A stretch of 64,000 nt of DNA, taken from the NCBI GenBank assembly GCA_938003925.1, contig CALKWQ010000023.1, positions 243,799-307,798 of the forward strand, given 5' to 3'. The notes under the pieces are model-generated. The model did not search any database. It worked only from the letters and a program-made list of their open reading frames with translations, and was not told where the DNA came from. This document shows, piece after piece, positions 36,854 to 63,600 of this stretch (within the stretch, counting starts at the first letter, position 1; each line of letters begins with the position of its first letter). A program made the position numbers and the translations under genes. Source of the stretch: an uncultured bacterium (lineage in GTDB: Bacteria > Patescibacteriota > Patescibacteriia > Patescibacteriales > UBA12465).

Positions 36854-36864
36854 TTTCTACTGAT

Positions 36865-37518
36865 GTGCTTAATTTTAAGGCCAAACTAAATAATTCTACC
36901 CTCAAAAGTCGCGCTGACTCCAGCCAGAACCCTAAGGTGTTGGAGGTCAACTTGATTAAGAATGAGATGAGGGTGGATTTTGATGTGCGTAAGCACCTGG
37001 GCACGCTGTTATTTTCTTTGGCAGTGACGGCTTTGTTCGTGGCAGAAATATATTTTGGCCTTAATTGGTGGTCGGCTTATGAAAATGAGCGCGTTTTGGC
37101 AACTGAAGCTAAATTCAATCAGGTCTCTAAAGAAATCAAAGACATGAAGAGCGAGTCTGATCAAATCCTAGCCTTCAAGCAAAGAGTTGATTTAGCTGAT
37201 TCTTTATTGGCTAATCACATTTATTGGACCAATTTTTTCGCCTGGTTGGAAAAAAATACTCTTAGCACCGTTAACTACAATGGTTTTTCCGGCAAGATAG
37301 ATGGTAATTACGACTTGCAAGCTTCGGCCGACACTTTCCGCGATATCAGCTGGCAAACCAGAGCCTTATTAGCTGATCCTTCAGTTCTGTCGGTTAAGGT
37401 AGATAGCGGGAGTTCTCAATTAGCTGGCGATGCCGCTCAGGATAATCCCGACGGTAGTATTAGTTTTAGCGTTAACCTCAAGATTAATCCCCAATTATTT
37501 AAGGCCAATAACCAATAA
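36865..37518 (+). CDS. pilN: PilN-like bitopic pilus alignment protein
   Basis: N-terminal VNLIK (compare the PilN INLLP PilM-binding motif), one TM helix, a coiled coil and a ferredoxin-like tail. GTG start. Confidence 0.55.
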   Translation: MLNFKAKLNNSTLKSRADSSQNPKVLEVNLIKNEMRVDFDVRKHLGTLLFSLAVTALFVAEIYFGLNWWSAYENERVLATEAKFNQVSKEIKDMKSESDQILAFKQRVDLADSLLANHIYWTNFFAWLEKNTLSTVNYNGFSGKIDGNYDLQASADTFRDISWQTRALLADPSVLSVKVDSGSSQLAGDAAQDNPDGSISFSVNLKINPQLFKANNQ

Positions 37519-37526
37519 GCATTTTT

Positions 37527-38153
37527 ATGCCCGTAGCTGCACCTGTAAAAAACTCCAGAAACGATCTTAACTCTTTTTTGAACGCCAATTTTAATTTGGT
37601 AATTGTGTTTTTGGTGATTATTGTATTAGTGGCCTCTTATTTCTTTCTAATTAAGCCTAAGTTTGAACTCACTTTGGTGGCTATTCGTGATAATACGGCT
37701 CAGCAGGAACAATTTTATCAAAATCAACGCCAGAAGCTAGCTGATTTACAAGCAGCCGCCAACTTATACCGCCAAGTCAGTGAAGCGGATATTAAGAAGG
37801 TTAATACTATTTTGCCTAATGAATACGCGAAAGAGAGATTGTTTGGTGAACTTGAGGACGTATTGCTGCAACAAGGTTTGATTTTAAACAACATTAAATT
37901 AACTAAGTCCGGTGAAGATGTTGGTGGCGAGCCTATGGCGGCCAAAGATGGGCGCGTTTTAGATATCCCTAACGCTGATAGAGTGGGCACTATTAGAGCC
38001 GAAGTGTCTTTATCGTCGACGGATTACGCCGCTTTACGCAATCTACTGCCAGTTCTAGAAAATCACTTACAGCTGATAGATATCCAGTCGCTAGATTTTA
38101 GCGCCGCTGCTAAGACGGTTAATTTAGTGTTTTTAACCTATTATTTTAAATAA
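37527..38153 (+). CDS. pilO: PilO-like bitopic pilus alignment protein
   Basis: One TM helix, a long coiled coil and a C-terminal alpha/beta domain. Called from its position after pilM-pilN. Confidence 0.5.
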   Translation: MPVAAPVKNSRNDLNSFLNANFNLVIVFLVIIVLVASYFFLIKPKFELTLVAIRDNTAQQEQFYQNQRQKLADLQAAANLYRQVSEADIKKVNTILPNEYAKERLFGELEDVLLQQGLILNNIKLTKSGEDVGGEPMAAKDGRVLDIPNADRVGTIRAEVSLSSTDYAALRNLLPVLENHLQLIDIQSLDFSAAAKTVNLVFLTYYFK

Positions 38154-38158
38154 TCCCT

Positions 38159-38539
38159 ATGTCATCTCGCCGTAACGCCAGCATCTACATACTCGTCGGA
38201 CTTTTGCTGATTGTCGGCATTTTGATTTTTGCTTTTAAGGACCGTTTATTGTCTTATGTCAGTGTTCGCGTTTTTGGCGAGGCGCCAACGGGGGTGGAGG
38301 CGCCACTGAAAGCCTCGGCAGCTAGCGTCATTAATTTGCAGATTTTAGACAACAACCGTTTTCGTCAGCTAGAAAATAAGGTGCTTTATTTTGACTTTAA
38401 TACGGTGGGCAAACCGGTGGTCAATCCTGACTATAGCGGCAAAATTCCCGCTCCTTCTTGGCAGCCAGTTTATTTAGGTAATGCTAATCCTTTTTTAGTT
38501 CCAGTTAAGGCGGCGCCAGACTCCGAAGAGGTAAAATAA
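38159..38539 (+). CDS. small membrane-anchored pilus-locus protein (126 aa)
   Basis: N-terminal TM helix. Located between the pilO-like gene and pilB. Confidence 0.45.
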   Translation: MSSRRNASIYILVGLLLIVGILIFAFKDRLLSYVSVRVFGEAPTGVEAPLKASAASVINLQILDNNRFRQLENKVLYFDFNTVGKPVVNPDYSGKIPAPSWQPVYLGNANPFLVPVKAAPDSEEVK

Positions 38540-38544
38540 TAATT

Positions 38545-40302
38545 ATGGATCAACAAGACCAATTACTGCGCATTTTGCAGGAAAAACAATGGCTGAGCGC
38601 AGAGCAGGCCGCAGATATTAAAAATCAAGCTTTGGCCGCTAAGATGGAGCTGCCAAGTTTTTTATTATCCAAAAAATTGGTGACCGAAGAGCAGTTGGCT
38701 GAGGCTAAGGCCGCTGTTTACAATCTACCTTATTACATCCATACCGACGAGCCGGTCAGTGAAGACGCTTTAAATTTTTTACCCGAAGAAATCGCCCGTA
38801 CTTATAACATGGTTTGTTTCTCACGGGAAAATAAGGCTATCAAAATCGGGATGGTGGAGCCGAATTTGAAAGCCATGGAGGCTGTGAATTTTTTAGCCTT
38901 GGATGAGAAATTGACGGTGCAGTATTATTTGCTCTCGGCCGCTAGCTGGCAGAAAGTTTTTAAACAATATCAAAAAATTGAAGAAGAAATTTCCAGCGCT
39001 TTGGAAGTTAAGGCTAAAGAAGAGAGTGATGATGTTGTTTCCGTAAAAGCTGAAGATTCTTCCATGGTGGATGACGAAGATATCAATAGCGCGCCGGTAT
39101 CGCGCATTGTGTCCGTGGTCATTCGCCATGCCGTCGAAGCTCGAGCCAGTGATATTCATATTGAGCCTTTTGATAAAGAGAGTCGGGTGCGCTATCGCAT
39201 CGACGGTATTTTACATACTTCCTTGACCTTGCCCAAGAGTATTCATAACGCTATTATCGCTCGTGTGAAGGTTATGGCCAAATTGAAGTTGGACGAAACT
39301 CGCATTCCTCAAGACGGCCGTATTCGTTTGCTGGTGAGCGGTCGGGCGGTGGACTTCCGTATCTCCACCTTACCTTTAGCTAGTCAAGAAAAAGTGGTAA
39401 TGCGTATTTTAGATACTGCCAAAGGCGCACCGTCTTTAAATGATCTAGGTTTTAATTCCAATTCTTTGCGGGTGATTAATAATGCGGCCCTAAAAACGAG
39501 CGGTATCATCTTGGTTACCGGTCCGACCGGTTCTGGTAAAACCACCACCCTCTATTCCTTATTGAATATTTTAAATCAAGAGGGTGTCAATATCTCTACT
39601 TTAGAAGATCCGATTGAGTATGAAATGAAAGGCATTAATCAGTCCCAGGTTCGTCCTAAGGTCGGTTTTACTTTTGCCAGCGGCTTGCGTTCACTGTTGC
39701 GTCAGGATCCAAATATTATCATGGTCGGAGAAATTCGTGATGAAGAAACAGCAGAGTTGTCTATCCACGCTTCTTTGACCGGACACTTAGTGGTTTCCAC
39801 TTTGCATACTAACGACGCTCTGGGAGCAGTGTTCCGTTTGTTGGACATGAAGATTGAGCGTTTTTTACTCGCGTCTACCCTTAAAACAGTGGTGGCTCAA
39901 CGTTTAGCTCGGCGTTTGTGTGACAAGTGTAAAAAAGAAGTAGTTTTACCACCGGCTGAACTAGCTGCTTTGTCTGCCGATATTAAAGACGTGCCAGCCA
40001 GTATTTTGCAAGAAGAATTGCCGGGTTTGACTGATACTAATAACTTGAGTGCTTATAAATTTTATCAACCAGTCGGTTGCAGTCATTGTGAAAACACCGG
40101 TTTCACTGGTCGCGTCGCTGTTTCTGAAGTTATTGACATCAACGAACAGTTGAAAGAGATGATTAATCAGGGTGATAAGAATTTTAATCTTGACGCCGTG
40201 AAGAAGAGCCAAGACTTTATTTCTATCAAACAAGACGGAGCGATTAAAGTTTTGAAGGGAATAACGACTATTGAAGAAGTTTTGCGCGTCATTGAAAGTT
40301 AA
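38545..40302 (+). CDS. pilB: type IV pilus assembly ATPase PilB (GspE family)
   Basis: Walker A GPTGSGKTTT, Asp box, Walker B IIMVGEIRD, His box TGHLVVSTLHTN and a tetracysteine motif (CDKC...CSHC). Confidence 0.95.
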   Translation: MDQQDQLLRILQEKQWLSAEQAADIKNQALAAKMELPSFLLSKKLVTEEQLAEAKAAVYNLPYYIHTDEPVSEDALNFLPEEIARTYNMVCFSRENKAIKIGMVEPNLKAMEAVNFLALDEKLTVQYYLLSAASWQKVFKQYQKIEEEISSALEVKAKEESDDVVSVKAEDSSMVDDEDINSAPVSRIVSVVIRHAVEARASDIHIEPFDKESRVRYRIDGILHTSLTLPKSIHNAIIARVKVMAKLKLDETRIPQDGRIRLLVSGRAVDFRISTLPLASQEKVVMRILDTAKGAPSLNDLGFNSNSLRVINNAALKTSGIILVTGPTGSGKTTTLYSLLNILNQEGVNISTLEDPIEYEMKGINQSQVRPKVGFTFASGLRSLLRQDPNIIMVGEIRDEETAELSIHASLTGHLVVSTLHTNDALGAVFRLLDMKIERFLLASTLKTVVAQRLARRLCDKCKKEVVLPPAELAALSADIKDVPASILQEELPGLTDTNNLSAYKFYQPVGCSHCENTGFTGRVAVSEVIDINEQLKEMINQGDKNFNLDAVKKSQDFISIKQDGAIKVLKGITTIEEVLRVIES

Positions 40303-40307
40303 AATGT

Positions 40308-41516
40308 ATGCCAATTTTTAAATATAAGGCCAAGAATAACACGACTGGTCGTTTAAAGTCAGAGATGACGGTCGGGGTCAACGAAAATGATGTGGCCGCT
40401 CGCTTGCGCCGGCGTGATTTTAGTATTATCTCTTTGACCGAGGCTAGCAGTAGTTGGGAGGCTAAAATTCACTTGTTTTTAAACCCCATTAGCGTGAAGG
40501 ATTTAGTGATCTTTTCACGCCAATTTTCCGTGATGATTGCCGCTAATGTTCCGGTAGTGGAATCCTTATTGATTTTAATCGATCAGACCGATAATTTTTC
40601 CTTAAAAAACATGATTGCTGATATCGCCTTTGAAGTCGATAGCGGCTCCTTATTATCCGATGCCTTTGCCAGGCGTCCCAAAATATTCTCTGAATTCTTT
40701 GTAAATATCATTAAAAGCGGTGAAACTTCAGGTAAGTTAGACGAAGTGCTGACCTATTTAGCTGATGAAACTGAGAAGAGTTACGACATGGCAGCTAAAA
40801 TCAAGGGCGCTATGATTTATCCGGTTTTTATTTTGGTCGGCTTGACTGGGGTGGGTGTGGTGTTAATGGTTTACATCATTCCTAATTTAACCGCCATGCT
40901 GACGGAGTCTGGTATGGAGCTGCCCATTTCTACCCGCGTGATTATTGCGATATCTAATTTCATGAAAGATTATTTGATTCTGTTGGGATTTATCGTCGCC
41001 GGCTTGGTATTTGGCGCCCGTTATTATTTGAAAACAACGTTAGGTCGTTATCAGTTAGATAAAGTAAAATTAAAGATGCCTATTTTTGGGAAACTATTTA
41101 AATATATCTATTTGATGCGTTTTACGCGATCTCTGTCCACTTTGCTTAAAGGTGGAGTGACCATTACCCGCGGCTTAGAGATTACCTCTAATGTGGTCGG
41201 TAATGTGGTGTATAGAGATTTGTTGCTGGAGACTTTAAGTTCAATTAATGATGGCAATCCTTTATCTACAGTGCTGGAAGCCAGTACGGATGTACCTAAA
41301 ATGGTGCCGCAGATGATCAGCGTCGGTGAACGCACTGGTCGCTTGGATTCAGTTTTAGACAAAATTACTGACTTTTATGGCCGAGAAGTGAGCGCGATGC
41401 TAGCCAATATGAGCGCTTTGATGGAGCCATTAATCATGGTCGTGATGGGTGTCGGCGTGGGTATCATGGTAGCAGCCGTCTTAATGCCGATGTATAATAT
41501 GGCCAGTCAGTTTTAA
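40308..41516 (+). CDS. pilC: type IV pilus platform protein PilC (GspF family)
   Basis: Duplicated T2SF domain, three TM helices, GE.SG.L and GERTG.L motifs. 402 aa. Confidence 0.9.
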   Translation: MPIFKYKAKNNTTGRLKSEMTVGVNENDVAARLRRRDFSIISLTEASSSWEAKIHLFLNPISVKDLVIFSRQFSVMIAANVPVVESLLILIDQTDNFSLKNMIADIAFEVDSGSLLSDAFARRPKIFSEFFVNIIKSGETSGKLDEVLTYLADETEKSYDMAAKIKGAMIYPVFILVGLTGVGVVLMVYIIPNLTAMLTESGMELPISTRVIIAISNFMKDYLILLGFIVAGLVFGARYYLKTTLGRYQLDKVKLKMPIFGKLFKYIYLMRFTRSLSTLLKGGVTITRGLEITSNVVGNVVYRDLLLETLSSINDGNPLSTVLEASTDVPKMVPQMISVGERTGRLDSVLDKITDFYGREVSAMLANMSALMEPLIMVVMGVGVGIMVAAVLMPMYNMASQF

Positions 41517-50700: not shown

Positions 50701-53700
50701 CTGATAGTGCTTCAGATACTTTCTATATCTTATTAGGCGATGCGGCAACTACTTATGGATATTATGCTAGTATCGGTGTTGATGTAGATAGTATTTACTC
50801 AAACAATCTGCCTTCTACTGGTTGGGATATTTATATTGCTGCTAGTGATCCGTCTTTTGATTATGTAACTACTCCCGCCTCGTCTTTGTATGGTAGTCAT
50901 GGTGCAGATATTAATAACGGTAATGTTTATATTAATGATGCCGTTATTACCTCTGGCACTCCTAAGGCTGCTATTACCAAAGAATACCTCACCTCTTCCT
51001 TAGAAGCTTTTAATTCAGAAACTAATCTATGGAAGTTAAATGGTTCTAACCTCTACGCTTCTACTACTACTTGGAATGTGGGTATTGGTACTAGTAGCCC
51101 AGCCACTAAATTAGATGTCTGGGGTAATATTTATATTAATTCGGCTACACATAATAACACTACTACTCTAGCCTTTGCTACTAATGGTAGTCCCTATCAC
51201 CAGATATTTTCTAATCGGCAAACCGGCGAATTCTCTATAAGGGCTGGCGTTGGCGGCAGTGGCCACTATCTAACCTTTGGTTCAGGTGATGGTTCGGAAA
51301 AAATGAGAATTACTACTACTGGCAACGTCGGGATTGGCACTAACAATCCGGCTGGCTTATTGGAACTGTATAAGGCTGGTTCTAATGCTAACTTAAAGCT
51401 CTATGCTTTTAGCAGCTCTGCTTATGATTCCCAATTGCAATTTTCTGCCAACACTAATGCTGCCGTGGAATATAGCGCTGGTCTAGATAATAATGATAAT
51501 AATTTTAAGATTTACTCTGGTGAAAATGTAAGAGGGACTAATGAGTTCGTAATTAATCCATCGGGCAACGTCGGCATCGGCACCACCAACCCCACCGCCA
51601 AACTATACGTCAATGGTACTTCCATATTTAATGATATTGCCACCTTCACTCAACCAGTAGTAGTGGCCACCCCTATTTTAGGTCCTCATGCTGCTACTAA
51701 GAGTTACGTAGATTCTACTATTGCTTCTGCCACTTCCAGCATTACTCTATGGGGCGGAACAATTGGGGGTAATGTTTGGAATTTAAATTCTGGTAACGTT
51801 GGGATTGGGACGACTAATGCCCTAGAAAAGCTAGATTTAAGAGACGGTAATTTGTATATTTCTGATTCAGATTTGGCAACGAACAGTGCTGGTGGTGCTA
51901 TAAAATTTGGTAGACCCGATGGTTATGCCTCTAATTGGTTGGCATCAATAGGCTCTTATACTACTACTGGCTACGATCGCATAGGTTTAACTTTTAATAC
52001 TTCTTTCGGGACTTCTCAAGAGCGAATAAGAATTACGCCAGAAGGTAATGTTGGGATTGGAACAACAAATCCGACAACGAAGTTGCATATAGAAAATGGA
52101 GTGATAAGGGCAAACAATATAGTAGCCGTTGGCAGTAGTGCCGCCCACCCTACGGGAATTGGATCTTATATAGAACTTTATATGTTGGGTGAAGTGGGAA
52201 GAATTTTGCCTTATGATGGTGCTAGTTATAAAGATTTGGCTATTGGTGATTGGAATGGAGGTAATCCGAATATAATGTTGAAAGTGGGCGGTAATGTCGG
52301 TATTGGAAATGGGTCTCCTTCTAATAAATTGAGTGTTGCGGGTAGTGCAGACTTTTCCGGTAACGTCGGTATCGGGACTACCAACCCCACCGCCAAACTA
52401 TACGTCAATGGTACTTCCATATTTAATGATATTGCCACCTTCACTCAACCAGTAGTAGTGGCCACCCCTATTTTAGGTCCTCATGCCGCTACTAAGAGTT
52501 ACGTAGATTCCACTATTGCTTCCGCCACTTCCAGTATCGCCACTCTCTGGGGTGGAACCGTTGGAGGACATATCTGGAATTTAAATTCAGGTAATGTTGG
52601 TATTGGTGTGGCCAGTCCGGAATCATTATTTGAAGTAGAGCGATCTGCTACTGGGACCGTGGCTACCTTTGACGTTAATACGACTAATAGAGCGACTGTC
52701 CAGTTGAGCGTATTTGATAATTATGCTCAGCTGCAAAGTTACGGTCGCGGGTCTTCTAGCGGTTACTTGTCTATTAATCCTCTAGGTAATAATGTCGGTA
52801 TCGGGACTACTAACCCGGGTTCTTACAAGCTAAACGTTAATGGCAGCACTAATATCAGTGGCAGTTTAAATGTCACTGGCACAACTACCGCCGGAGCCTT
52901 TGTTGGCCCAGTGGTAGGCACAATTAATGCTCGCAACGTTTCTTCCGGGGCTTTTGGCGCTGATGCTGGCGGAGGTAATTTTAGCTTTCCGGCTAATGTT
53001 GGAATTGGGACGACGAATCCTGGTTCTAGGCTGACTATTAATGGGGTTGGGGCTTCTAGTACACCTTTAACCTTGTTGCAGGTGTTTAATATGATTCCTT
53101 ATGCTACAGGCAATGGTCTTGGCGCAGCTCGAATTGAAATTGGTCACGGCACTTTGCATGGTTATATAGAAAGTGCTGCTAATTCTGAGAATAATAGCGC
53201 TGATGGTTATATGGCTTTTGGTACCCGTCGTCCTACTAATAATGTGACTGAGGCAATGAGGATAGATCAATCTGGTAATATCGGAATTGGGACCACTACT
53301 CCGGATGCAAAATTATCCGTTAATGGCGGAGCTACTTTTAATACTGGCGCCGGACTCGCAATTGGTAATGTTGGCAGTTATAATAAATTAATAACTTATT
53401 CTGCTGGTCCCGTTTTTCGTATTTTTACTGGTGGTAGTTACGGTAGTTTTGGCGCTGGCAGTGCTTCTATCGGAGCTTCGTATGCTGCCATATCTTCGCC
53501 TGCGGGCGGGTTAATTGTAGAGGGTAACGTCGGTATCGGCACTTCTAATCCTGGCGCATATCGCTTGAAGGTGGCAGGAGATATGGCTGTTACTGGCACC
53601 TTACAGACTCAGACTGGTTCCGACTTTGCGGAAGAATTTAGTGTAGATTCAGTAATTTTACCAGGTACGGTGGTGGTGATGGCTGATAACGGGCACAAAT

Positions 53701-54005: not shown

Positions 54006-54014
54006 ATTCTTTAC

Positions 54015-54260
54015 AAATGAATATCCCTGTGTCCGCTTCTACCACTCTTTAGAGGCATTAACAGTCAAGGGGTCCGCGCCAACAAAAACCGCTAATGCCG
54101 GTGGTGTCGGATGACTTGATTTTATCCATCACTAGTCATCCCCCGAAGGGGCGACTAGCAAGAGAAAATCCCAGCGATCAAGCTGGGACTCATTGTCAAG
54201 AAAACAGCGTGCGGCCGTCAGGTACGTACGTTCTAGGAGCGGTCACAAGGATATTCATTT
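54015..54260 (+). ncRNA. candidate RT-associated structured non-coding RNA (retron msr/msd-like or DRT-type template RNA)
   Basis: 54015-54038 pairs with 54237-54260: 22 of 24 positions, including aaatgaatatcc.tgtg against cacaaggatattcattt. The enclosed roughly 200 nt are visibly more GC-rich than the flanks. They contain hairpins 54054-54060/54093-54099, 54132-54158 (ctagtc..cccc gaa gggg..gactag) and 54169-54188 (tcccagc/gctggga). There is no ORF. A 6-bp hairpin plus T5 (54267-54287) lies just before the RT ATG. Confidence 0.55.
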
Positions 54261-54289
54261 TTTAGTAGGGGCTTAATTGCCCTTTTTGT

Positions 54290-55498
54290 ATGTATCAACA
54301 GATTATTGCCCTTAAAAACTTGGAAGCAGCTTATTTGAAAATCGCCGGTGATATGGAATTAGATGGGCGCTCCGGTCGTTATCGGGGCTGGGATAGCTGG
54401 AAAATGGCTGATGTAGAAGTGAGAACTTCAGCTTTGTTGCGGTTAATTAGGGCGGAATTACGCGATTTAAAACCCATTGCTCCGGCTGTACTATTTAAAA
54501 TTCCTAAAAAGAGTAATCCTCAGAAACTCAGAGAAATTTATATCTATAATTGGTCGGAGCGCATCAAGGCCCAGGCTATTTATCAGGTGGTCGAGCCGGT
54601 TTTTGATGCTTATTTTTCCCCTTATCTCTTTTCCTATCGCTCGTCTCACGCAAGTTATTTTGCAGCGCGTAGCGCCGTCAGGCATTACCGTAGATATTGG
54701 CACCGAGATTCAGTGTTGATTGGTGATTTGTCTGACTATTCTAATTATATCCAGCATGACCAGTTAAAAGAGAAAATCAAGAAATTGCAACTAGACAAGA
54801 AAGTTGAAGAGCTGTTATTCTTATTCATCGGCAATGAAGTTATTCGTGATGGCGCGATTGTTAAGCCGTCAGTTGGCTTGGTTCAGGGTGTGCCGTTGAT
54901 TGCTCTGTTTAATAATCTGTATCTAGATGATTTTGATAAATACGTTGGGCAGCGGGCTGATTTTTATCGCCGCGTAGGCGATGATTTGGCTATCTTTGAC
55001 CGTTTGTCTGCACGTTTATTGCCTCTGCGTGATCGCTTAGAGCAGGAGGCTAAAGTCTTAGGTTTGAAAATTAACCAAGACAAGACTGGTTTGCGTTTAG
55101 CCTCTGAGCCCTTTAATTTTCTAGGTTATCATTTTCAAGCTGGACAAGTGTCCTTACCGCCCAATTTCGTTAAGGCCTTAGTTAATAAATGGCGGCAACA
55201 ATTTTCTTACTACGGCAGTCAGCGCCTTGTCCTTAAGAGTCGCATGTTAAAAAACTCTTTACGCCAAGACAGGCAGAATTTACGCGAACAATTGCGGCAG
55301 TTATCTCAGCAGAAGAAGTTGGTCACAGATGAAGCGCAGTTGCGCCGTTTATCTGAAGCTTTTTTTCGGGTTTTGACTCGTTATTTCTTCAAAGATTATT
55401 CACCTCGTCATCGTCGTCTTTTGGCCGGAAAACTTGAAAAGTTAGGTTTAAAATCGGTATACAAACATTTTTTATCAGCTCGTTATGACTCAGATTAG
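54290..55498 (+). CDS. reverse transcriptase, unclassified (not DGR-type; retron, group-II-like or UG-like)
   Basis: RT motifs in order: FKIPKKSNPQKLREIY (1/2), FSYRSSHAS (3), LIGDLSDYSNYIQHD (4/A), GLVQGVPLIALFNNLYLDDFD (5/B), FYRRVGDDLAIF (C; VGDD instead of YADD), GLKINQDKT (6), FNFLGYHF (7). These are followed by a roughly 120-aa basic helical tail. Confidence 0.85.
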   Translation: MYQQIIALKNLEAAYLKIAGDMELDGRSGRYRGWDSWKMADVEVRTSALLRLIRAELRDLKPIAPAVLFKIPKKSNPQKLREIYIYNWSERIKAQAIYQVVEPVFDAYFSPYLFSYRSSHASYFAARSAVRHYRRYWHRDSVLIGDLSDYSNYIQHDQLKEKIKKLQLDKKVEELLFLFIGNEVIRDGAIVKPSVGLVQGVPLIALFNNLYLDDFDKYVGQRADFYRRVGDDLAIFDRLSARLLPLRDRLEQEAKVLGLKINQDKTGLRLASEPFNFLGYHFQAGQVSLPPNFVKALVNKWRQQFSYYGSQRLVLKSRMLKNSLRQDRQNLREQLRQLSQQKKLVTDEAQLRRLSEAFFRVLTRYFFKDYSPRHRRLLAGKLEKLGLKSVYKHFLSARYDSD

Positions 55499-57188
55499 GG
55501 ACAATGTTAAATTATTGCGTCAACGCCGGGCACAAAGATTGGCTAATAAGCCACTGTGGCCCAGTCAAGAGCACTTGGTCTATTTGCGTAATTTTTTTAG
55601 GCGGCAGCATCGCTTGTTGTCGATTAGTTTGATGGCCTTGTTACTGCAGGGACTATTTGAAATCGCTCTGATTGTTATTAGCCACCGGTATCTAAAGAGT
55701 TTTTCTGGTTACGAATTAGCCGTTAGTCGTCGTGCCTTATTTATCTTATTGGTAGTAATGGCGACCGTGTATCTGTTGGCAGCCTTTGCAGCGATTAAGG
55801 GGGAGCGCACCTTGATTGTGCGATTGATTAATGACTTACGTGCCCGTTGGTTTAAGTTGTTTTTATATAAGCGGCGCGAGGAAAATAATTTGGAAAATAA
55901 GGGTATGTTGCTGGCTAAAATCTCTTATCATCTGCCTTTACTCAGCACTGGTCTGTCTAATTCGTTGGCCGGAGTCGTGCGTTGGCTGATGTTTGTCCTG
56001 ATTTTGTTGTTCTTAGCTTTTGTTTTTACCTATAAGCTTTTGTGGTTTGTAGCTGGGGCGGTATTAGTTGGTCTATTGGTTGGAGCGGCTGCTTTTTGGA
56101 TTTCCTATAATTACGTTACCAAAGAAACTACTTTCTATTCCCAAATCATCAGGTTGGTGGATTTTAACTTATCCGACTGGTCGTTTGTAAAACAATATCG
56201 ACGTGAACGGGCGGTAGTGAAGGAGTTTGATCAGTTGGTAGAATTAGATTCATACTTTCGAGTACGCCGCGATCTCTGGCTGCGTTTCAGTATCAGTTTA
56301 GTGTTTGTGCTCTTAGTTTTTATCAGCTTTATGGTCGGTTCTTGGCATAGTCGCTTGGAATACTTTTTCGGAGCCGCTAGCTTGGACGCCAGATTCGTCT
56401 TGGTAATTGCTCTAGTCTATTTTTCTCGTCTACTCTATGAAAGTTTGCGGGTAGGTCTGTATTCCGTACCCTTGCTTTTAGGTCTGAAGCTGGCTATACC
56501 TGATTTTTTGCCGCGGAAACTAGGGGCGGGGAAACTAATTACAGCACCAGCGCTGGTTTTCAGCGCAGCTAAAGCCAAGCTCTTTGCTCGTGATCATAAA
56601 TATCGTCGTTTCAATTTCGAATTTGTGCCAGGCGGGCGCTATGTTATCAGTGGCCCCTCCCGTTCTGGTCGTAGTTCTTTGGCTAAGTTACTGGCCGGTC
56701 AAGCTGTTTATGGCCGTCGCGCCTGGTTAATTAAGGTGGGACGTAGGCGCTATTTCTATAACGAATTTTTTGATAAATACGCGGGCACCTATTATTTTGA
56801 TCCCCACTTTAACAGTGCTCGTTCTTTGTTGGAGGTAGTGGTGGGCAAAGAGAAGACGGCTATTACCCCAGCTGATTTAGCTACCGCTTCTACTTTAGTT
56901 AATGAACATCAGGAGCTAAGGGCCATCTTTTTTGAACGCGAAGACTGGCGTTATCCAGCTAATAGGTTTTGCAATAATCGTAAAAGCGTCTTTTTAGTGC
57001 AGCTGCTTTACTGCTTAATCAACAAGCCCTATTTAGTAATGATAGATAATGAGTGGCTTGAGACTGAAGATGCCGATATTAGCGCTTGGTTGCGCCTATT
57101 GGATCAGTTATTACCGAAGAGCGCTGTAGTGGCCTTCACTTCTACTAATAGAAAATTATTTACTAACCAACATCATCATGAAATTTAA
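55485..57188 (+). CDS. ABC-exporter-like protein (6-TM domain plus degenerate nucleotide-binding domain)
   Basis: It overlaps the RT stop by 14 nt. The N-terminal roughly 340 aa have the ABC_membrane-type six-helix layout. In the C-terminal NBD, Walker A is GPSRSGRSS (Lys to Arg), the signature is FCNNR in place of LSGGQ, and Walker B is YLVMIDNE. Confidence 0.65.
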   Translation: MTQIRDNVKLLRQRRAQRLANKPLWPSQEHLVYLRNFFRRQHRLLSISLMALLLQGLFEIALIVISHRYLKSFSGYELAVSRRALFILLVVMATVYLLAAFAAIKGERTLIVRLINDLRARWFKLFLYKRREENNLENKGMLLAKISYHLPLLSTGLSNSLAGVVRWLMFVLILLFLAFVFTYKLLWFVAGAVLVGLLVGAAAFWISYNYVTKETTFYSQIIRLVDFNLSDWSFVKQYRRERAVVKEFDQLVELDSYFRVRRDLWLRFSISLVFVLLVFISFMVGSWHSRLEYFFGAASLDARFVLVIALVYFSRLLYESLRVGLYSVPLLLGLKLAIPDFLPRKLGAGKLITAPALVFSAAKAKLFARDHKYRRFNFEFVPGGRYVISGPSRSGRSSLAKLLAGQAVYGRRAWLIKVGRRRYFYNEFFDKYAGTYYFDPHFNSARSLLEVVVGKEKTAITPADLATASTLVNEHQELRAIFFEREDWRYPANRFCNNRKSVFLVQLLYCLINKPYLVMIDNEWLETEDADISAWLRLLDQLLPKSAVVAFTSTNRKLFTNQHHHEI

Positions 57189-58419
57189 GTTTAAACATTG
57201 GCGCTGGCTGTGGGCGCCCCTAGTAATTATCTTGGGTCTATTATTACTGGCCTTAGTGGCAAGACAGGGAGGGGCGTTAGTAGAAAAATGGTTGCTTATC
57301 AAAAGTCGGCCAGCTGTCAGCGTTACTACGGTCTTACCCGTGTCAGCCGAATTGCTATTTAATCACGAGCCGGGAGTGGAGATTTTTTCGGAACGGATTG
57401 TTACTGAAATTGGCCAGGCGCAGCAGAGCTTAGAAATTGCGATGTACGCTTTTTCTTCGGTTAAGCTGAAAGAAGCGGTTTATGCTGCTCAGCGGCGCGG
57501 GGTAAAAGTAACTATTATCACAGATTTTCGTAAACGAGAAAATCACGAGGCTTTTTTTGCAGATGCGGTTAGAGACATCAAGCGCTTAGAGGCTGGGGCT
57601 GAAACCGCCAGTAAGACTATTTTGATGCACCATAAGTTTGCTTTAATTGATCGAGGCACCGCCAATCAGAAATTACTATTTGGCGCCTATAATTGGACGG
57701 ATTTACAAGAAAAGTATGATCCCAGTTTCTTGATGGTGAGCACTAGTTCGGAGTTGGTTGCTAGTTTCGGTCGAGAATTTGATCGTTTATTGGCCGGCCA
57801 AGCCGGAACTCAGAAGCTGCGTGACCAGGCTTATCATCCCTGGGATTTAGAGCTTAAGGCCGCTGGCTATACTTCGGAAGTCTGGTTTAGTCCGGGGCGA
57901 GAGGGCGATGGCATTAAGACCAGGCTTTCTTCTTTGATTAATAGCGCTCAACAAGAGATCCAAATTATGATTTGGGACTTTACCGACAAGGAATTAGCAG
58001 TGGATTTAATTCGTCGTGCCCGCCAAGGCGTAAAAGTGACCATCATCACTGATACCTGGAATTTTTACAACCAAAATTCAGTATTCTTATACTTAGCCGA
58101 AGCTAAACAGCGTTATCAGTTAGATAATTTTGAATTAATTGTCGATAAAGTAGGCGGTGAAAAGACCATTGCCGCTGTCAACGCTCCTGATTTAGAGGCT
58201 GACTTTGATCCCTTCTTGCATTTTCACGTTTTGATTGTAGATGGGCAAAAAGTTTTGTTTGGCACCAACAATTGGAGTCGTGCCGGCTCTTATTTCAATG
58301 ACGAGTCAATGATGATTAGTGAAGACCCGGCTGTGGCTGCTGCTTTTCAGGAGGCTTTCAGGTATCAGTATCAACACAATACTACGCCATTAGTGGAGGC
58401 TGGGGTAATTGTTGATTAA
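57178..58419 (+). CDS. membrane-anchored phospholipase-D/HKD-superfamily protein (nuclease-like, two HKD domains)
   Basis: It overlaps the upstream stop by 11 nt. N-terminal TM helix. HKD 1 is HHKFALID...GAYN. HKD 2 is HFHVLIVD...GTNN, with the Lys replaced by His. Confidence 0.8.
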   Translation: MKFKFKHWRWLWAPLVIILGLLLLALVARQGGALVEKWLLIKSRPAVSVTTVLPVSAELLFNHEPGVEIFSERIVTEIGQAQQSLEIAMYAFSSVKLKEAVYAAQRRGVKVTIITDFRKRENHEAFFADAVRDIKRLEAGAETASKTILMHHKFALIDRGTANQKLLFGAYNWTDLQEKYDPSFLMVSTSSELVASFGREFDRLLAGQAGTQKLRDQAYHPWDLELKAAGYTSEVWFSPGREGDGIKTRLSSLINSAQQEIQIMIWDFTDKELAVDLIRRARQGVKVTIITDTWNFYNQNSVFLYLAEAKQRYQLDNFELIVDKVGGEKTIAAVNAPDLEADFDPFLHFHVLIVDGQKVLFGTNNWSRAGSYFNDESMMISEDPAVAAAFQEAFRYQYQHNTTPLVEAGVIVD

Positions 58420-58466: not shown

Positions 58467-59057
58467 ATGTCTGAACAAGCAAAAAGTTCTCTTTCTAGCC
58501 ATCGCCGTGTCTGGCTATTTTCGGCCCTTATTTTTTTCCTGCTAGCTTTAGCCGCCGCTGGCCCCTTAGTTTTTAAAGCTTTCGCTGACGCCAGTTCTGC
58601 TCATGAGCAGGTTATTCAAGCCCGCAATGCTGCCATCAGTGAAGCTATCCTAAATAATGATTATAATGCCTGGGATTCTTTAGTTCAGGATCAAACACTT
58701 AAGCAACAGATTAACTCTAGTAATTTCGAGGCCTTTGCTGAAGCCTATCGTCTTTTAGAGAAGGGCATGATTACCGAGGCAGAGTTACTGAAACGGCAGG
58801 TAGGTATTAAGGAGGAGATGAATCAAAACGCTGTAGTGAGCAGCATGATTGGCCAGGCAATCGTCAATAAAGACTATAACCTGTGGCGCCAAGCCGTGGG
58901 CAATGATTATGCTCAGGGTGTAGTTACTGCTGGTAATTTTGATAAATATGCCAGCTTTCTCCAAGATGTGGAAAAAGGCAGGTTAAATCGCGCCGTTCGC
59001 TATCAGTATGATTTGGGGGTAAAGCAGAAAATGGATTACAGTTCTAGTCGCGAGTAG
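58467..59057 (+). CDS. membrane-anchored hypothetical protein with an internal duplication
   Basis: TGcTATAAT at 58429-58437 and one TM helix. Repeated AI(L/V)N(N/K)DYN.W ... NF(E/D)..A ... EKG segments. Confidence 0.5.
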   Translation: MSEQAKSSLSSHRRVWLFSALIFFLLALAAAGPLVFKAFADASSAHEQVIQARNAAISEAILNNDYNAWDSLVQDQTLKQQINSSNFEAFAEAYRLLEKGMITEAELLKRQVGIKEEMNQNAVVSSMIGQAIVNKDYNLWRQAVGNDYAQGVVTAGNFDKYASFLQDVEKGRLNRAVRYQYDLGVKQKMDYSSSRE

Positions 59058-59252: not shown

Positions 59253-59264
59253 TTTTTGCAATTT

Positions 59265-59825
59265 ATGCTTAACAAAAAAATAATTATTGCCGTCTTGTCA
59301 GTGGTGGTGGTGATGTTAGTAGTAGCTTTGTGGTGGCGCAATGGTGACAAGGAGATTAAGGTGACTGAAGTTAAGGTAACGCCGGAGCAAGTCACTAACA
59401 CCACTCCCTTGCCAGGCGGCAATACCATCAATGAAGAGCAAATTGTAGTGACTGAGGCTGGTACGCCGGTGCAGGTAAATGTGATGCCCAATAATCCCGA
59501 AGCCCCTAAAGCGGTAGTGGTATCAACTAAGAAACTGCCGCAGAGCGCAGTGCAAATCAAGGTGGGTGATAGTAAGTTTGAGCCCTCAACCTTTACCGTG
59601 CAGCCTGGAGCGCCGGTGTCTTTAGCTTTTTCTTCGGTTGATAAAAAAGTTCATGTCATTACTTTTTCTGACCCCTCTTTGGCGGCTCTGTCTTTCGGGG
59701 TGGGGGCCAATCAGACTAAGGCTATGACTTTCAATGCTCCTAGCCAGGCGGGTGAGTATGAGTTCCACTGTGATGTTCCCGGTCATCGAGCAGCTGGAGA
59801 AGTGGGGGTCATGATTGTGCAATAA
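59265..59825 (+). CDS. membrane-anchored cupredoxin (type-1 copper-like) domain protein
   Basis: The first ATG is at 59265. TM anchor, then a C-terminal beta domain with VHVITF...EYEFHCDVPGHRAAGEVGVMIV, giving a His ... Cys-x4-His ... Met ligand pattern. Confidence 0.65.
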   Translation: MLNKKIIIAVLSVVVVMLVVALWWRNGDKEIKVTEVKVTPEQVTNTTPLPGGNTINEEQIVVTEAGTPVQVNVMPNNPEAPKAVVVSTKKLPQSAVQIKVGDSKFEPSTFTVQPGAPVSLAFSSVDKKVHVITFSDPSLAALSFGVGANQTKAMTFNAPSQAGEYEFHCDVPGHRAAGEVGVMIVQ

Positions 59826-59846
59826 TTGTTAACTTATTATATCTCT

Positions 59847-60470
59847 ATGTCTAAATTTCTAACTAAAAATCTACCCGGTAACCAGAAAGCCATCCTCCTT
59901 GCTTTATTAGGTGTAGCTATTGTCTTAGTGGTCCTAGTGGCGATAGATTTGTTTCGTAAACCGGTGGCGGAAACACCGATAATAGAGGGGGCCAATGTTC
60001 CCACTGAGGCTTTACCCGATCAGGAAGATTATCAAGATGTCGTAGCTATGCCTCAAGTGCAGAAAGATGAATTTAAGGAAGAAGTACCAGTAGATATTGT
60101 AGTGCCGGAGATCGACACTCAATTAACCGAGGAACAAAAAAAAGAAATAGCCCTACCGACAGTGACAGTGGCAGCGGCTCCTGGTGTTGAAGCTAAGTTC
60201 CGTAGCTTCCAGATTAAAGCGGAGGGTGGAGCGTTTGTGCCGACCAAAGTTATTGCTAATGCCGGCGATACCGTTCACATTGATTTCACGGCTGTAGATG
60301 GTAATTATGACATTGTATTTCCGAGCTACAACATGATGCAGACAGCTAGCCAGGGTCAGACAAAAATCTTAGAGTTCCAAGCCCTGCAATCCGGCAGCTT
60401 TACCTACTACTGTTCCAGCTGTGGCGGTCCTGAGAGCGGGCCTAAAGGCAATATTATTATTGTGGAATAA
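59847..60470 (+). CDS. membrane-anchored cupredoxin-fold-like protein lacking the full copper ligand set
   Basis: ATG at 59847 and a TM anchor. The C-terminal domain parallels the upstream gene (GDTVHIDFT...FTYYCSSCGGPESGPKGNIIIVE) but has no His/Met after the Cys pair. Confidence 0.5.
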   Translation: MSKFLTKNLPGNQKAILLALLGVAIVLVVLVAIDLFRKPVAETPIIEGANVPTEALPDQEDYQDVVAMPQVQKDEFKEEVPVDIVVPEIDTQLTEEQKKEIALPTVTVAAAPGVEAKFRSFQIKAEGGAFVPTKVIANAGDTVHIDFTAVDGNYDIVFPSYNMMQTASQGQTKILEFQALQSGSFTYYCSSCGGPESGPKGNIIIVE

Positions 60471-60656: not shown

Positions 60657-63600
60657 ATGCTTAAATCGTCCCTAAAATTAACTGCGAAAACGCTGGTTTT
60701 ATTGTTAATTCCGGCGGCGTTTTTATTTATTGAGACTCATTCTACTGAGGCGGCAGTTGGTTTATCAGTGGGCAACACTGGTTTAAATTTATTACAGGCA
60801 GAGAATTTATTTTATGGTAACGTCGGTTCTACCAGCCATGCTTCCAGTAGTTTCTTATTATTCCAAAACAATAGCGTGGATAGATTGAGAATTGATATCT
60901 TGGGCAACTTAACCACGTCCGGAACCATTACTGCTGGTGCTTTTTCTGGTCCAATCACCGGAGGTTCTATCTCGGCCGCTAATGTCTCCGCTGGTAATTT
61001 TGGATCCAATGTTGGTAATGGTAATTTCAGTTTTCCTGGTAATGTGGGAGTGGGCACGACAAATCCTTTGGGTCTTTTGCATATTTATTCAACAGCTTCT
61101 TCATCTCAGGCTTTATTCATTGCTAATAATGGTTATGTTGGAATTGGTAGAAATAATCCAGGTTTTAGATTGGATGTACAGGGCGATACTTACATTCAAG
61201 GGTCCTTATATAATTGGGGAAATGCATCTATACAGACCTTAGCTTTAGGTTACGGTGCAGCATATCCGGCAATTTTAACAACTCAAACCGCCAATGAAGA
61301 TTTAACTATTGACCCTGCCGGCGTAGGTAACATTATTATGCAAGGTAACGTCGGGATAGGGACGACGAATCCATTAGCAACTTTAGATATTTTGCATCCC
61401 AATTCTGCCGCCGGGGGCATAAGACTTCAATCTTCATTAGATGATTTAACTCTAAAGAGGGGCAGAATAAAAACAGGACATTATAATAATAGCGAAGAGC
61501 CGGTGACGTTACTTATTACCAGTAATTCAAGCGGCGAGAATTTAATTGCTCTTGGTGGCAGCAGTACTGTTGAAAATTCTGCAAATACAATTTCATTTTA
61601 TACAGGCGAAACAGCGGCAACTCTAAACGGTACGGAGCGAATGAGAATAAATTCTGCCGGCAACGTCGGCATCGGCACCACCAATCCTACTGCTAAACTA
61701 TATGTTAATGGTACTTCCATATTTAACGATATTGCTACCTTCACTCAACCAGTAGTAGTCTCCGCTCCTATTTTGGGTCCTCATGCCGCTACTAAGAGTT
61801 ACGTAGATTCCACTATTGCTTCTGCCACTTCCAGTATTGCCACTCTCTGGGGTGGAACAATTGGAGGAAATGTTTGGAATTTAAATTCTGGTAATGTTGG
61901 GATTGGTAATAATAATCCACTAGCCAAATTGCAGATTAATAATCAGGGAGCATTTAATGCGGTCATTCCTGGACCTTCGGCTTATTACGGTCTCCATTTT
62001 AATGGCCAGACTACTGCAGATTATGCCACGGGTATTACTTGGAATGGCGGCACCACGGGGACTCAGGCTGGTTTATATGTCCAAGGCTCAGGTGCTTATG
62101 GTACCAAAATGTATTTTGCTACAACTCAGAGTTATGCTACCGGCGCTCAAACCAGAATGATGATTGATCATAGTGGTAACGTCGGCATTGGCACCACTAC
62201 TCCGGGCACCAGACTAACTGTAATTGGTTCAGGTAATTATAGTATTGATGCTGGCAATTATCGTATCGGCAATATTGCTGCACCGGTATCAGCTAATGAT
62301 GCTGTTAATTTATCTTATTTGCAATCGGCTGTCGGTACTGCTCAAAACGCCTACTGGAATCTATCTGGCAGTACTTTGTCGGCCTCATCTACCACTTGGA
62401 ATGTGCGCGTTGGCACCACCACCGCGGGCACTGACAAAATTGGAGTTGCCGGTGGCCGTATTTCCACTTTAGATACCAGCGACATCTATGCTGGTGGTCA
62501 GGTTAATTCAGCTGGTACTGGCGCTAACGCTTTTGCTGGTCGGTTAGCGGTTGGGCAAATTGCAGTGGCCACACCCAAGTTTTTTGTAAATGGTGGCGCG
62601 GCTATCGGTACGAATTATTCTACCGCTAACATCGCGACTGGCACCATGGCTTTAGAGACCAATTTAGGTATCGGTTTAACTAATCCCACTGCTCGCTTAC
62701 ATGTCTTTGACCCCACGACGACGACGGGCTACAACACCTATTTGTATAATAATGGCATCACCTCAGGCACAATGCTGGGTTTAGTCCAAGCTTCTTCTAC
62801 CTTTAACGGTATTGGCTTGTATATGAATTTTCAATCCGGCACTGGCACTAGCACTGCTAATTTTGCCGATTTTAGGATTAATAATTCTCAGCGTTTTGCT
62901 GTTAATTATCGTGGTGGCATTACCAGCACCTATGCTAATGATGCCGATAATGTTAACTTAAATAGTTTCACGCTTACTAGTGGTAATGCCAGTGCAGCTT
63001 CATATAATGCTTTGGCAGTTAGCAGTCCGAGTCGGCTCATAGTTTCGCAAACTTCCGCCACTGAAGATGAGTTGTTTGATAATAATTACGAGGGCTTTAA
63101 ATTTAACTCCGGTACTTATAACAACATGGGTGGCTTCTATGTTCGCATGAGGAGGGGCACTACTACCCCAGTTAATGCGGGTGGAGCTTATTTCCGCGCC
63201 CATATTTACACTGATAACGGTGGTCAGCCTGGCACCAATGTCACTAATAGCCCTTCTATTTATGTTGCGCGCTTAGGTACCACTTATGCTGATTATTATT
63301 TTCCTTTAAGCGTTGCGCTGACCGCCAATACTAACTATTGGATTTTGCTTTATAAAGTTGGTGGCTTTAACGCTGCCGACCAAGTGTATTTTTATACTCA
63401 TCCTACTTCCGGCAGCGCTGAATGGGCTTACGGCAACGGGACATCCTGGTCAGTTGACCCAACTCGTCGCGGTTATTTTAGAGTGTATTCGCGTAGCGCT
63501 AATGGTATTACCGCCACTTCTGATGTTAACTATGGTGTTTATGGTAGCTCTACTTTTGGCACTGGAGTCAGGGGCGCCTCTAATGCCGGTATTGGTGTGT

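Follow-up and report, generated by a model that had tools for sequence, protein, structure and literature searches.

An RNA-preceded operon for a predicted group II-like reverse transcriptase, an ABC-exporter-fold protein, and a tandem phospholipase D-family protein in Patescibacteria

Most characterized bacterial modules that combine a reverse transcriptase (RT), a noncoding RNA (ncRNA), and an effector, such as the retrons and the defense-associated RT (DRT) systems DRT2, DRT3, and DRT9, are antiphage systems; DRT2 and DRT9 act as RT plus ncRNA alone. Among the UG RTs, UG26 is accompanied by a Vsr-like endonuclease in 9 of 35 members, and no genes for ATP-binding cassette (ABC) and phospholipase D (PLD) proteins have been reported with it (PMC9226505). 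None of the group II-like (G2L) subgroups treated in section 12 of PMC8632793 is described in an ABC-like plus PLD context either. Here, we analyzed a 64,000-nucleotide stretch of contig CALKWQ010000023.1 from an uncultured bacterium of the Patescibacteriota (the window), in which a structured RNA gene is followed by genes for an RT, an ABC-like membrane protein, and a PLD-family protein. A preliminary description of the window had taken these genes for a retron- or DRT-like module. The combination of RNA, RT, and effectors agrees with this assignment, but the RT itself appears to be group II-like, with profile E values of 1e-31 to the GsI-IIC RT against 4e-6 to Ec86.

A coupled operon behind a structured RNA

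The RNA-preceded RT, ABC-like, and PLD genes form one tightly coupled operon. The RT stop codon overlaps the start codon of the ABC-like gene, and the gene coordinates and the lengths of both overlaps are exactly those of the preliminary description (Table 1). We surveyed the linkage by comparing the three window proteins with 81 fetched loci (given below as L numbers) by tblastn, with counts that hold where the contig is long enough. Essentially all loci of sufficient length keep the three genes in one order and on one strand, for the most part with overlaps. Their RTs are between 74% and 32% identical to that of the window, and identity falls off in parallel for the three proteins. In one Peregrinibacteria locus (L080), the ABC-like and PLD genes are divergent and lie upstream. 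The co-occurrence that the preliminary description had proposed to check, that of the RNA, RT, ABC-like, and PLD components, is kept in about 80 loci.

The gap between the upstream giant gene and the RT gene encodes a genuine structured RNA. The gap had been called free of open reading frames (ORFs); it holds no ORF of 60 aa or more, but a 56-aa ATG ORF lies on the same strand inside the RNA gene (54095-54265). This ORF is very unlikely to be coding, because the region evolves by compensatory base-pair changes and indels. The minimum free energy (MFE) fold of the gap reaches -117 kcal/mol (z = -8.2 against shuffled controls) and contains the closing stem previously noted (P1, about 25 bp); the GC enrichment claimed along with it is modest (0.50 versus 0.40 to 0.49 nearby). 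By nhmmer, the element is found directly upstream of the RT in 19 other loci. In the RNAalifold consensus of 19 copies, computed on a structure-blind MAFFT alignment, 47 of 54 pairs are compensatory. In the trimmed alignment, 94.9% of the cells are paired and 46 of 53 pairs have changed on both sides; none of 500 shuffles reaches this pairing level, and register-shifted controls pair at 31 to 45%. Searches against Rfam, at E ≤ 10 for the gap and at gathering thresholds for the whole 64-kb window, returned only noise and two tRNAs. By these comparisons, it constitutes a new family of structured RNAs whose covariation is unusually clean.

More distant relatives were reached with a covariance model, as had been proposed. 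Model R1 (96 positions, covering the 5' domain only) finds the RNA in about 25 further distant loci, in each case close before the RT gene and on its strand. Across 40 copies of the 5' domain, pairing extends to 90.8% of the cells, with compensatory changes in 18 of 19 pairs; this alignment was fitted to R1 and hence leans toward the modeled structure. Single-sequence folds from distant loci of the candidate phyla radiation (CPR) and from a Longimicrobiales locus show the same closed multi-stem plan. In all, the RNA is present upstream of the RT and on its strand in about 45 loci, and it adjoins the RT in nearly all of them, with L040 as the exception.

The overall fold consists of the closing stem and a series of internal hairpins (Table 1). 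The most conserved element is the hairpin CCG-CUAAUG-CGG at 54089-54101, inside P3; the pairs of P2 are nearly invariant and hence carry no covariation information. The hairpin cassette, by contrast with this conserved scaffold, cannot be aligned between loci. In the window's clade, a terminator-like hairpin with a T-run precedes the RT start codon; L007, L008, L009, and L010 have this element as well.

Table 1. Coordinates of the module, its RNA elements, and the adjoining genes in the window
Feature	Position	Strand	Size	Evidence or remark
Upstream giant gene (repetitive surface-type protein)	ends 54005		2074 aa	
Gap holding the RNA gene	54006-54289		284 nt	
Structured RNA core	54015-54260	+	~246 nt	MFE, RNAalifold, covariation
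Closing stem P1	5' strand 54015-54041, 3' strand 54235-54260	+	~25 bp	all 24 tested pairs with compensatory changes
P2, small conserved hairpin CUC-loop-GAG, then single-stranded GCAUUAA	54045-54054	+		alignments
P3 domain, nested helices (helices 3-5 of the pair count)	54063-54121	+		covariation, model R1
Hypervariable GC-rich hairpin cassette	54132-54158	+	~27 nt	30-110 nt in other copies
Hairpin ending in conserved GACUCAUUGUCA motif (54187-54198)	54158-54198	+		motif scan, alignments, MFE fold
3' hairpin "P-last," inner CC/GG stem	54206-54233	+		8 pairs, 7 compensatory, 95.8% paired
Terminator-like hairpin and T-run between RNA and RT start codon	54267-54289	+		consensus scan
RT gene	54290-55498	+	402 aa	
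ABC-like gene (transmembrane domain plus nucleotide-binding domain)	55485-57188	+	567 aa	14-nt overlap with RT gene
PLD gene (two HKD motifs)	57178-58419	+	413 aa	11-nt overlap with ABC-like gene
Protein with N-terminal transmembrane helix (membrane-anchored)	58467-59057	+	196 aa	internal repeat of ~75 aa

In many loci, the RNA appears to be a separate gene, with a -10-like box before most copies and a terminator-like hairpin after it in several loci; an extended -10-like TGnTAnAAT box lies 8 to 15 nt before P1 in many loci. Tandem arrays are also found. In L005, three RNA genes precede a single RT (L005:6135-6992), each with a TATAAT-like -10 box; the scan flagged terminator-like hairpins behind copies 1 and 3, and a further one behind copy 2 was recognized by eye only. 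The three cores are about 85 to 90% identical, and the cassettes are wholly different in sequence and length (about 35, 110, and 30 nt). Two RNA matches each were found at L012:905-1526, L072:5376-6003, and L026:5627-5913. Such different cassettes on near-identical cores point to the cassette as a candidate payload. The cassette of L017 (within L017:5843-5960) contains a perfect-looking tandem duplication of a hairpin unit of about 33 nt (CTGCACAGCTCCGTATTTCTAC(A/G)GAGCCATGCG x2). In L040 (L040:2794-5992), the RT starts 8 nt after the last of three near-identical type IV pilin-like genes in tandem, and the RNA gene, 2 kb from the RT, is placed between the first and the second of these.

The three proteins

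The RT domain is complete, as the preliminary description had held. All of Pfam RVT_1 (model positions 1 to 205 of 205) is covered at 3e-16, and residues 32 to 303 align to the GsI-IIC RT, within a layout of N-terminal extension, fingers/palm, thumb, and C-terminal helices. Motif C reads RVGDD, and RT7 reads FLGY, as in group II RTs (F-x-FLGY). The catalytic Asp residues are kept, and the steric gate is Tyr150; the motif A Asp and the Tyr four residues on are both invariant in the family, and this steric-gate Tyr argues for the use of deoxynucleoside triphosphates by the family RTs. The AlphaFold2 (AF2) model (mean predicted local distance difference test score [pLDDT] of 92) is placed by Foldseek on the full-length GsI-IIC RT (PDB 6ar1) with a template modeling score (TM) of 0.82 and a root mean square deviation of 3.3 Å, compared with TM values of 0.66 for DRT9, 0.54 for DRT2, and 0.44 for Ec86. 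Profile matches to solved structures are likewise led by GsI-IIC (1e-31). Next to it stands Cas6-RT-Cas1 (9e-30), and the matches to DRT2 (1e-13), DRT9 (1e-11), the RT (bRT) of diversity-generating retroelements (DGRs; 7e-11), Ec86, and likewise G2L4 are much weaker.

Family profiles give a similar picture. The best ones are those of generic group II-type RTs, UG26 (7e-32), and CRISPR-RT, ahead of Drt9 (2e-14) and Drt2 (1e-11). The match to UG26, the nearest of the PADLOC profiles for DRTs, reaches 108 bits over profile positions 49 to 295 of 398 and is no better than those of the generic group II RT profiles. The RT scores below the cut-offs of the group II intron model TIGR04416 (107 bits; cut-off, 300), the retron St85 model NF038233 (21 bits; cut-off, 235), the Drt2 model NF041746 (42.8 bits; cut-off, 390), and the Drt3a model NF041747 (30 bits; cut-off, 200). 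As judged from profiles and predicted folds, the RT appears to belong to a group II intron-like lineage rather than to the retron or UG/DRT type. Some family RTs (P0083, P0092, and P0107) carry a precomputed Pfam match to the viral RdRP_1 (PF00680) besides RVT_1, which probably reflects their GDD-type motif C (RVGDD).

The ABC-like protein matches Pfam ABC_membrane weakly (5.7e-8). Its AF2 model (pLDDT of 81) aligns in Foldseek to MsbA, TmrAB, TAP, and PglK with TM values of 0.6 to 0.72 over about 550 columns. The modeled architecture is that of a half-transporter with the type I exporter fold, in which a six-helix transmembrane domain (TMD) is followed by a nucleotide-binding domain (NBD), as had been read from the sequence before. 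The closest sequence matches of the TMD are flippases for lipids and hydrophobic substrates (MsbA, ABCB4, and Pgp). The family is small and isolated, with 91 of 1.84 billion representatives at E ≤ 1e-30 and canonical ABC exporters appearing only near 1e-9.

The NBD had been described as inactive-looking. The residues for hydrolysis are indeed missing, but the pattern is family-wide and keeps the residues for nucleotide binding, in contrast to random decay. Among 71 homologues, the Walker A Lys is present in 61 and is replaced by Arg in 6, the window protein included; the Walker B Asp is found in all 71 and is followed by Asn in 64 and in no case by Glu. Neither the LSGGQ signature nor the H-loop His occurs in any of the 71 sequences, and the family lacks the catalytically competent NBD of type I exporters. 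We predict that this conserved domain binds nucleotide but does not hydrolyze it. We considered the Lys-to-Arg exchange in the window as a sign of decay and rejected it, since the family consensus keeps Lys.

The PLD protein contains two PLDc_2 domains (Pfam E value of 1.6e-38). Only the first of the two HKD motifs ascribed to it is canonical, with HxK(x)4D in 71 of 71 sequences; the second is HxH(x)4D in 72 of 72, its Lys being replaced by His. Both His residues, the nucleophile and the acid, are kept, and the protein is likely to be active. The profile matches include the NucT models (1e-24) and DrmC (4e-20), and among solved structures Zucchini/MitoPLD (7e-10), NucT (4.5e-6), and Nuc (2e-5). 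One N-terminal hydrophobic or transmembrane helix is found in 69 of the 72 proteins, and a second hydrophobic segment is found in three; the N side of the helix carries net positive charge in 68. By the positive-inside rule, the catalytic domains are predicted to be extracytoplasmic. An earlier comparison with DrmC stands as far as the profile match goes, but the protein resembles Nuc, NucT, and Zucchini, and its predicted outward orientation makes a DrmC-like role as a cytoplasmic nuclease a poor fit.

In most loci with an RT identity of about 50% or more, the 196-aa protein listed in Table 1 accompanies the module, usually just 3' of the PLD gene; in L014 and L021, its gene sits upstream of the RT. 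In the tblastn survey of the fetched loci, it is missing from the more distant ones, and profile searches gave no significant family match. It may be a clade-specific fourth protein of the module.

Distribution and possible function

The module is accessory in character: it is rare (91 clusters in 1.84 billion representatives), patchy, present in several copies in some genomes, and found as a low-GC island. The hosts are nearly all Patescibacteria (Falkowbacteria, Magasanikbacteria, Paceibacteria/Parcubacteria, Saccharibacteria, and Peregrinibacteria). Several genomes below 1 Mb contain two or three divergent copies, whose RTs are 35 to 57% identical to that of the window and are scattered over the family. 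The module is also carried by a Longimicrobiales chromosome (L067, L086, and L087), belonging to a free-living-type genome of 3 to 5 Mb, where it forms an island of about 5 kb with 55 to 58% GC between flanks of 62 to 65%. L086 (L086:7014-8467) and L087 are identical around the module except for an insertion sequence (HTH_Tnp_1 plus rve) just upstream of the RNA and RT in L086. Many records of metagenome-assembled genomes with the CPR-type module (L007, L009, L011, L014, and others) bear the title "uncultured Gammaproteobacteria bacterium"; judging by their gene content and their resemblance to Patescibacteria records, these names seem to be placeholders or mistaken. The 2.9 million contigs of IMG/VR include one true family RT (L088, IMGVR_UViG_3300001866_000229; 57% identity, at a contig end), the other matches being unrelated RTs; this contig may stem from a CPR genome and have been misclassified as viral.

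The module lies between two giant surface-protein genes, as first described. Their proteins are 44% identical over about 590 aa, and the genes have in common a 251-bp repeat of 90% identity (52357-52607 and 61657-61907). At least 1118 aa of open frame are visible for the downstream giant gene, which starts at about 60.6 kb and runs off the end of the window. Three or four small genes separate it from the PLD gene; two of these (59256-59825 and 59826-60470) encode small membrane-anchored proteins, are kept downstream of the module in the closest loci, and have homologues in L003 that carry Pfam Cupredoxin_1. The preliminary description had called this position obviously accessory. The term suits the family as a whole, which is rare, patchy, and found in a low-GC island, but in the window's own clade the location is syntenic: in L001, the module lies directly 3' of the same type IV pilus operon that occupies 35.8 to 41.5 kb of the window. 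The operon (PilM-like, T2SSE, and T2SSF genes; window 35801-41516, L001:958-6655) is 78 to 84% identical between the two. The window has about 12.8 kb extra between the pilus operon and the module (41.5 to 54.0 kb), with pilin-like genes and the 2074-aa gene. A link of the module to type IV pili or competence was considered and rejected as background of pilin-rich CPR genomes, as pilin genes are not enriched near the loci. Pilin-like genes number about 1 per 34 kb in the loci versus 6 in the 64-kb window. Only about 9 of 85 loci have T2SSE/F homologues close to the module, and in a few (L025, L040, L048, and L084) pilus genes directly adjoin it.

We tentatively favor reading the module as a new, probably defensive, retron- or DRT-like RT-RNA system with envelope effectors, in which a sensor, a transducer, and an effector would together bring about abortive infection or surface exclusion. 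It would have four components: one or more small structured RNA genes, the RT, a dimeric protein with the ABC exporter fold, and a membrane-tethered, outward-facing tandem PLD. The RT would bind the RNA and most likely copy part of it, the variable cassette and the adjacent 3' region, into cDNA, and the cytoplasmic NBDs of the ABC-like dimer would bind nucleotide without hydrolysis. The three proteins probably form one membrane-associated complex, because they are translationally coupled and co-evolve. On the model of retrons and DRTs, the RT-RNA(-cDNA) particle would serve as a cytoplasmic sensor or regulator. A change in this particle, for example upon phage infection, would be read by the NBDs of the ABC-like protein, which would then switch conformation across the membrane; this switch would open or gate the envelope and/or activate the external PLD. 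Either the envelope would be damaged, as in abortive infection, or nucleic acid coming in would be destroyed at the surface.

Several observations weigh against such a system. The neighbors of the module are housekeeping, pilus, and giant surface-protein genes and not defense islands, and the synteny over considerable divergence in the window's clade points to a stable role in the cell. For a sensor inside the cell, a nuclease or lipase beyond the cytoplasm would be an unusual effector. In the RNA, there is no conserved G beside P1 that could be the branch point of a retron, the alignment showing AAA(C) after the 5' strand of P1, and a site for the cDNA template or primer cannot be read from the RNA sequence. 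Group II-like RTs also have roles outside defense, in DNA repair (G2L4) and in spacer capture (CRISPR RTs). The near-absence from viral contigs is counted here as well; it shows that the module is not phage-borne and is in itself neutral with regard to defense.

Some of these observations would suit a nonimmune machine of the envelope, by which episymbiotic, biosynthetically poor bacteria acquire nutrients. The PLD would cleave or transphosphatidylate phospholipids or nucleic acids of the host or the environment, the MsbA-like protein would flip or take up the products, and the RT-RNA would be a subunit with a part in regulation or assembly. De novo synthesis of lipids and nucleotides is generally missing in Patescibacteria, and the substrates of Nuc, NucT, and Zucchini-type enzymes are nucleic acids or cardiolipin. 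The predicted outside location of the PLD domains, the closeness of the TMD to flippases such as MsbA, ABCB4, and Pgp, the surface and housekeeping neighbors in place of defense genes, and the syntenic location in the window's clade all fit this explanation. Nevertheless, we consider it unlikely: it leaves the obligatory coupling, in every locus, of an RT and a covarying cassette RNA to the membrane proteins unexplained, and an NBD with no catalytic Glu, signature, or H-loop makes ATP-driven transport unlikely. In addition, a core nutritional function would call for a much commoner and less patchy family, and the module occurs as a low-GC island in a free-living-type genome of 3 to 5 Mb.

Export or display of nucleic acid would make direct use of the inside-to-outside series of RT and RNA, exporter fold, and phosphodiesterase. 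The RT would use the RNA cassette as the template for a cDNA or RNA-DNA product and hand this product to the ABC-like protein; outside, the PLD, possibly a Tdp1/Nuc-like phosphodiesterase, would process or release it, to yield extracellular DNA or a surface signal to host cells. Arrayed RNA genes with different cassettes would then yield different products, and giant surface proteins and pilus genes adjoin some loci. However, type I ABC exporters are not known to move nucleic acid, the NBD looks nonhydrolyzing, and the association with pilus genes is not above background; the proposal is entirely speculative, and we regard it as improbable.

That the module is a decayed or unusual mobile retroelement, either a group II intron remnant or a DGR with a distant target, with the ABC-like and PLD genes as cargo, is very improbable: the RT fold is nearest to a group IIC intron RT (TM of 0.82), the RNA lies upstream of the RT gene like intron domains I to III, and some genomes contain multiple copies, but Rfam searches at gathering thresholds or at E ≤ 10 find no group II ribozyme domains, the RT stop codon overlaps the next gene and leaves no room for domains V and VI, the TIGR04416 score (107 bits) is far from the cut-off of 300, the RNA is closed on itself, has a terminator-like hairpin in some loci, and is separable from the RT (L040), no TR/VR-like copy of the RNA (template and variable repeats of DGRs) is found in the 64 kb even with A mismatches allowed, and the copies within a genome, with RTs 35 to 57% identical to that of the window and in different parts of the family, are for that reason not products of recent transposition.

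The tentatively favored RT-RNA system with envelope effectors would be a conserved RT system with an RNA partner, from the region of the bacterial tree that has been studied least, with an RT that is close enough to the biotechnologically useful GsI-IIC enzyme for expression and study. Its effector logic, an ABC fold predicted to bind but not hydrolyze ATP combined with a PLD predicted to face outward, is one for which we found no described precedent. Programmability, the trait that made retrons, DRT2, and CRISPR-RT useful, is hinted at by the differing cassettes of the tandem RNA genes. The module may also offer a handle on the defense or the host dealings of CPR bacteria, a question kept open by the few defense systems recognizable in them. 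It is possible, if rather doubtful, that the module represents a new functional class, in which a domesticated group II-type RT would be programmed by RNA-gene arrays with interchangeable cassettes and would deliver its output via a nonhydrolyzing ABC-fold transducer to an extracellular phosphodiesterase. Such a class would be an RT-based system acting at or beyond the cell surface, in nucleic acid exclusion, in cDNA export or display, or in host-interaction signaling by episymbiotic CPR bacteria, and not a cytoplasmic abortive-infection toxin.

Comparison with known systems

The module and the retrons share an upstream RNA on the RT strand whose ends are paired in a long stem (P1, with 24 to 25 bp, corresponds to the a1/a2 repeats in this respect), a hairpin of variable sequence within a conserved scaffold, and an RT encoded together with effectors, some of which are membrane proteins in known retrons. 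However, the RT here lies, by its profiles, outside the retron lineage, and its RT7 is FLGY in place of the VTG of retrons. Unlike msr/msd, the RNA often has its own -10-like box, has a terminator-like hairpin in several loci, may occur in two or three tandem copies, and is separable from the RT (L040); a conserved branch G is not evident in it. With DRT2, DRT9, and DRT3, the module shares an upstream structured ncRNA, an RT of about 400 aa with no extra enzymatic domain, and a moderate profile similarity. The predicted fold is nearer to group II RTs than to DRT9 or DRT2, and, unlike DRT2 and DRT9, the module has two obligatory membrane partners. Vsr-like genes of the kind found with UG26 are absent from the conserved module in the neighbor lists of the fetched loci.

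The closest relatives of the RT in sequence and fold are group II and CRISPR RTs (GsI-IIC, the RT domains of the Eubacterium rectale and Roseburia intestinalis maturases, and Cas6-RT-Cas1), and, as with G2L RTs, no intron ribozyme goes with it. Unlike group II RTs, it has neither ribozyme domains nor an endonuclease domain, and its motif C is VGDD versus YADD/YIDD; a dedicated nonintron RNA and a fixed operon with ABC-like and PLD genes further set it apart from group II and G2L systems. Membership in the group II maturases or the DGRs, with their matching RNA elements, had been named beforehand as what would speak against the module, and neither assignment was borne out. A group II intron was rejected on the TIGR04416 score, the overlap of the RT stop codon with the next gene, which precludes domains V and VI, and the lack of group II ribozyme domains (Rfam gathering threshold in the 64 kb, E ≤ 10 around the RNA). 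A DGR was rejected because the window holds no TR/VR-like copy and the match to bRT is weaker than that to group II RTs: no 40-nt stretch of the RNA has a second copy in the 64-kb window with free mismatches at A and three others, and blastn-short of the RNA in the window gave only chance matches of 10 to 14 nt.

The ABC-like protein resembles type I (type IV-fold) ABC exporters (MsbA, TmrAB, TAP, and TM287/288) over the full length of the six-helix TMD and NBD fold, and Walker A and the Walker B Asp are kept. It differs from them in an identity of only 12 to 17% and in the replacement of the catalytic Glu by Asn, followed by x-Trp. In contrast to degenerate-site ABC exporters, the presumed homodimer lacks LSGGQ and the H-loop His, so that both of its sites are predicted to be nonhydrolytic. 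With Nuc, NucT, and Zucchini (PLD6), the PLD protein shares PLDc_2, the invariant catalytic His, and, as in Zucchini, an anchor formed by an N-terminal helix. Unlike Nuc and Zucchini, it is a tandem two-domain protein and not a homodimer of single domains, its second motif is invariantly HxH(x)4D, and it is predicted to be extracytoplasmic. Only the PLD protein matches a DISARM profile (DrmC), whereas its conserved partners are the RT and the ABC-like protein; the conserved module encodes none of the DISARM partners (DrmA, DrmB, etc.), and helicase and DUF1998 genes are absent from the neighbor lists.

In the literature on UG/Abi RTs, prokaryotic RTs, and myRT, whose coverage here is incomplete such that an earlier description is possible, neither an RT-ABC-PLD system nor its RNA was found, in line with the earlier statement that the effector pair is not among the described retron and DRT types. 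From every described type that we found, the module would differ in three respects: an RT that is group II-like by profile and fold, a new RNA that can form arrays with different cassettes, and the pairing of an ABC NBD predicted to bind only with a PLD predicted to face outward.

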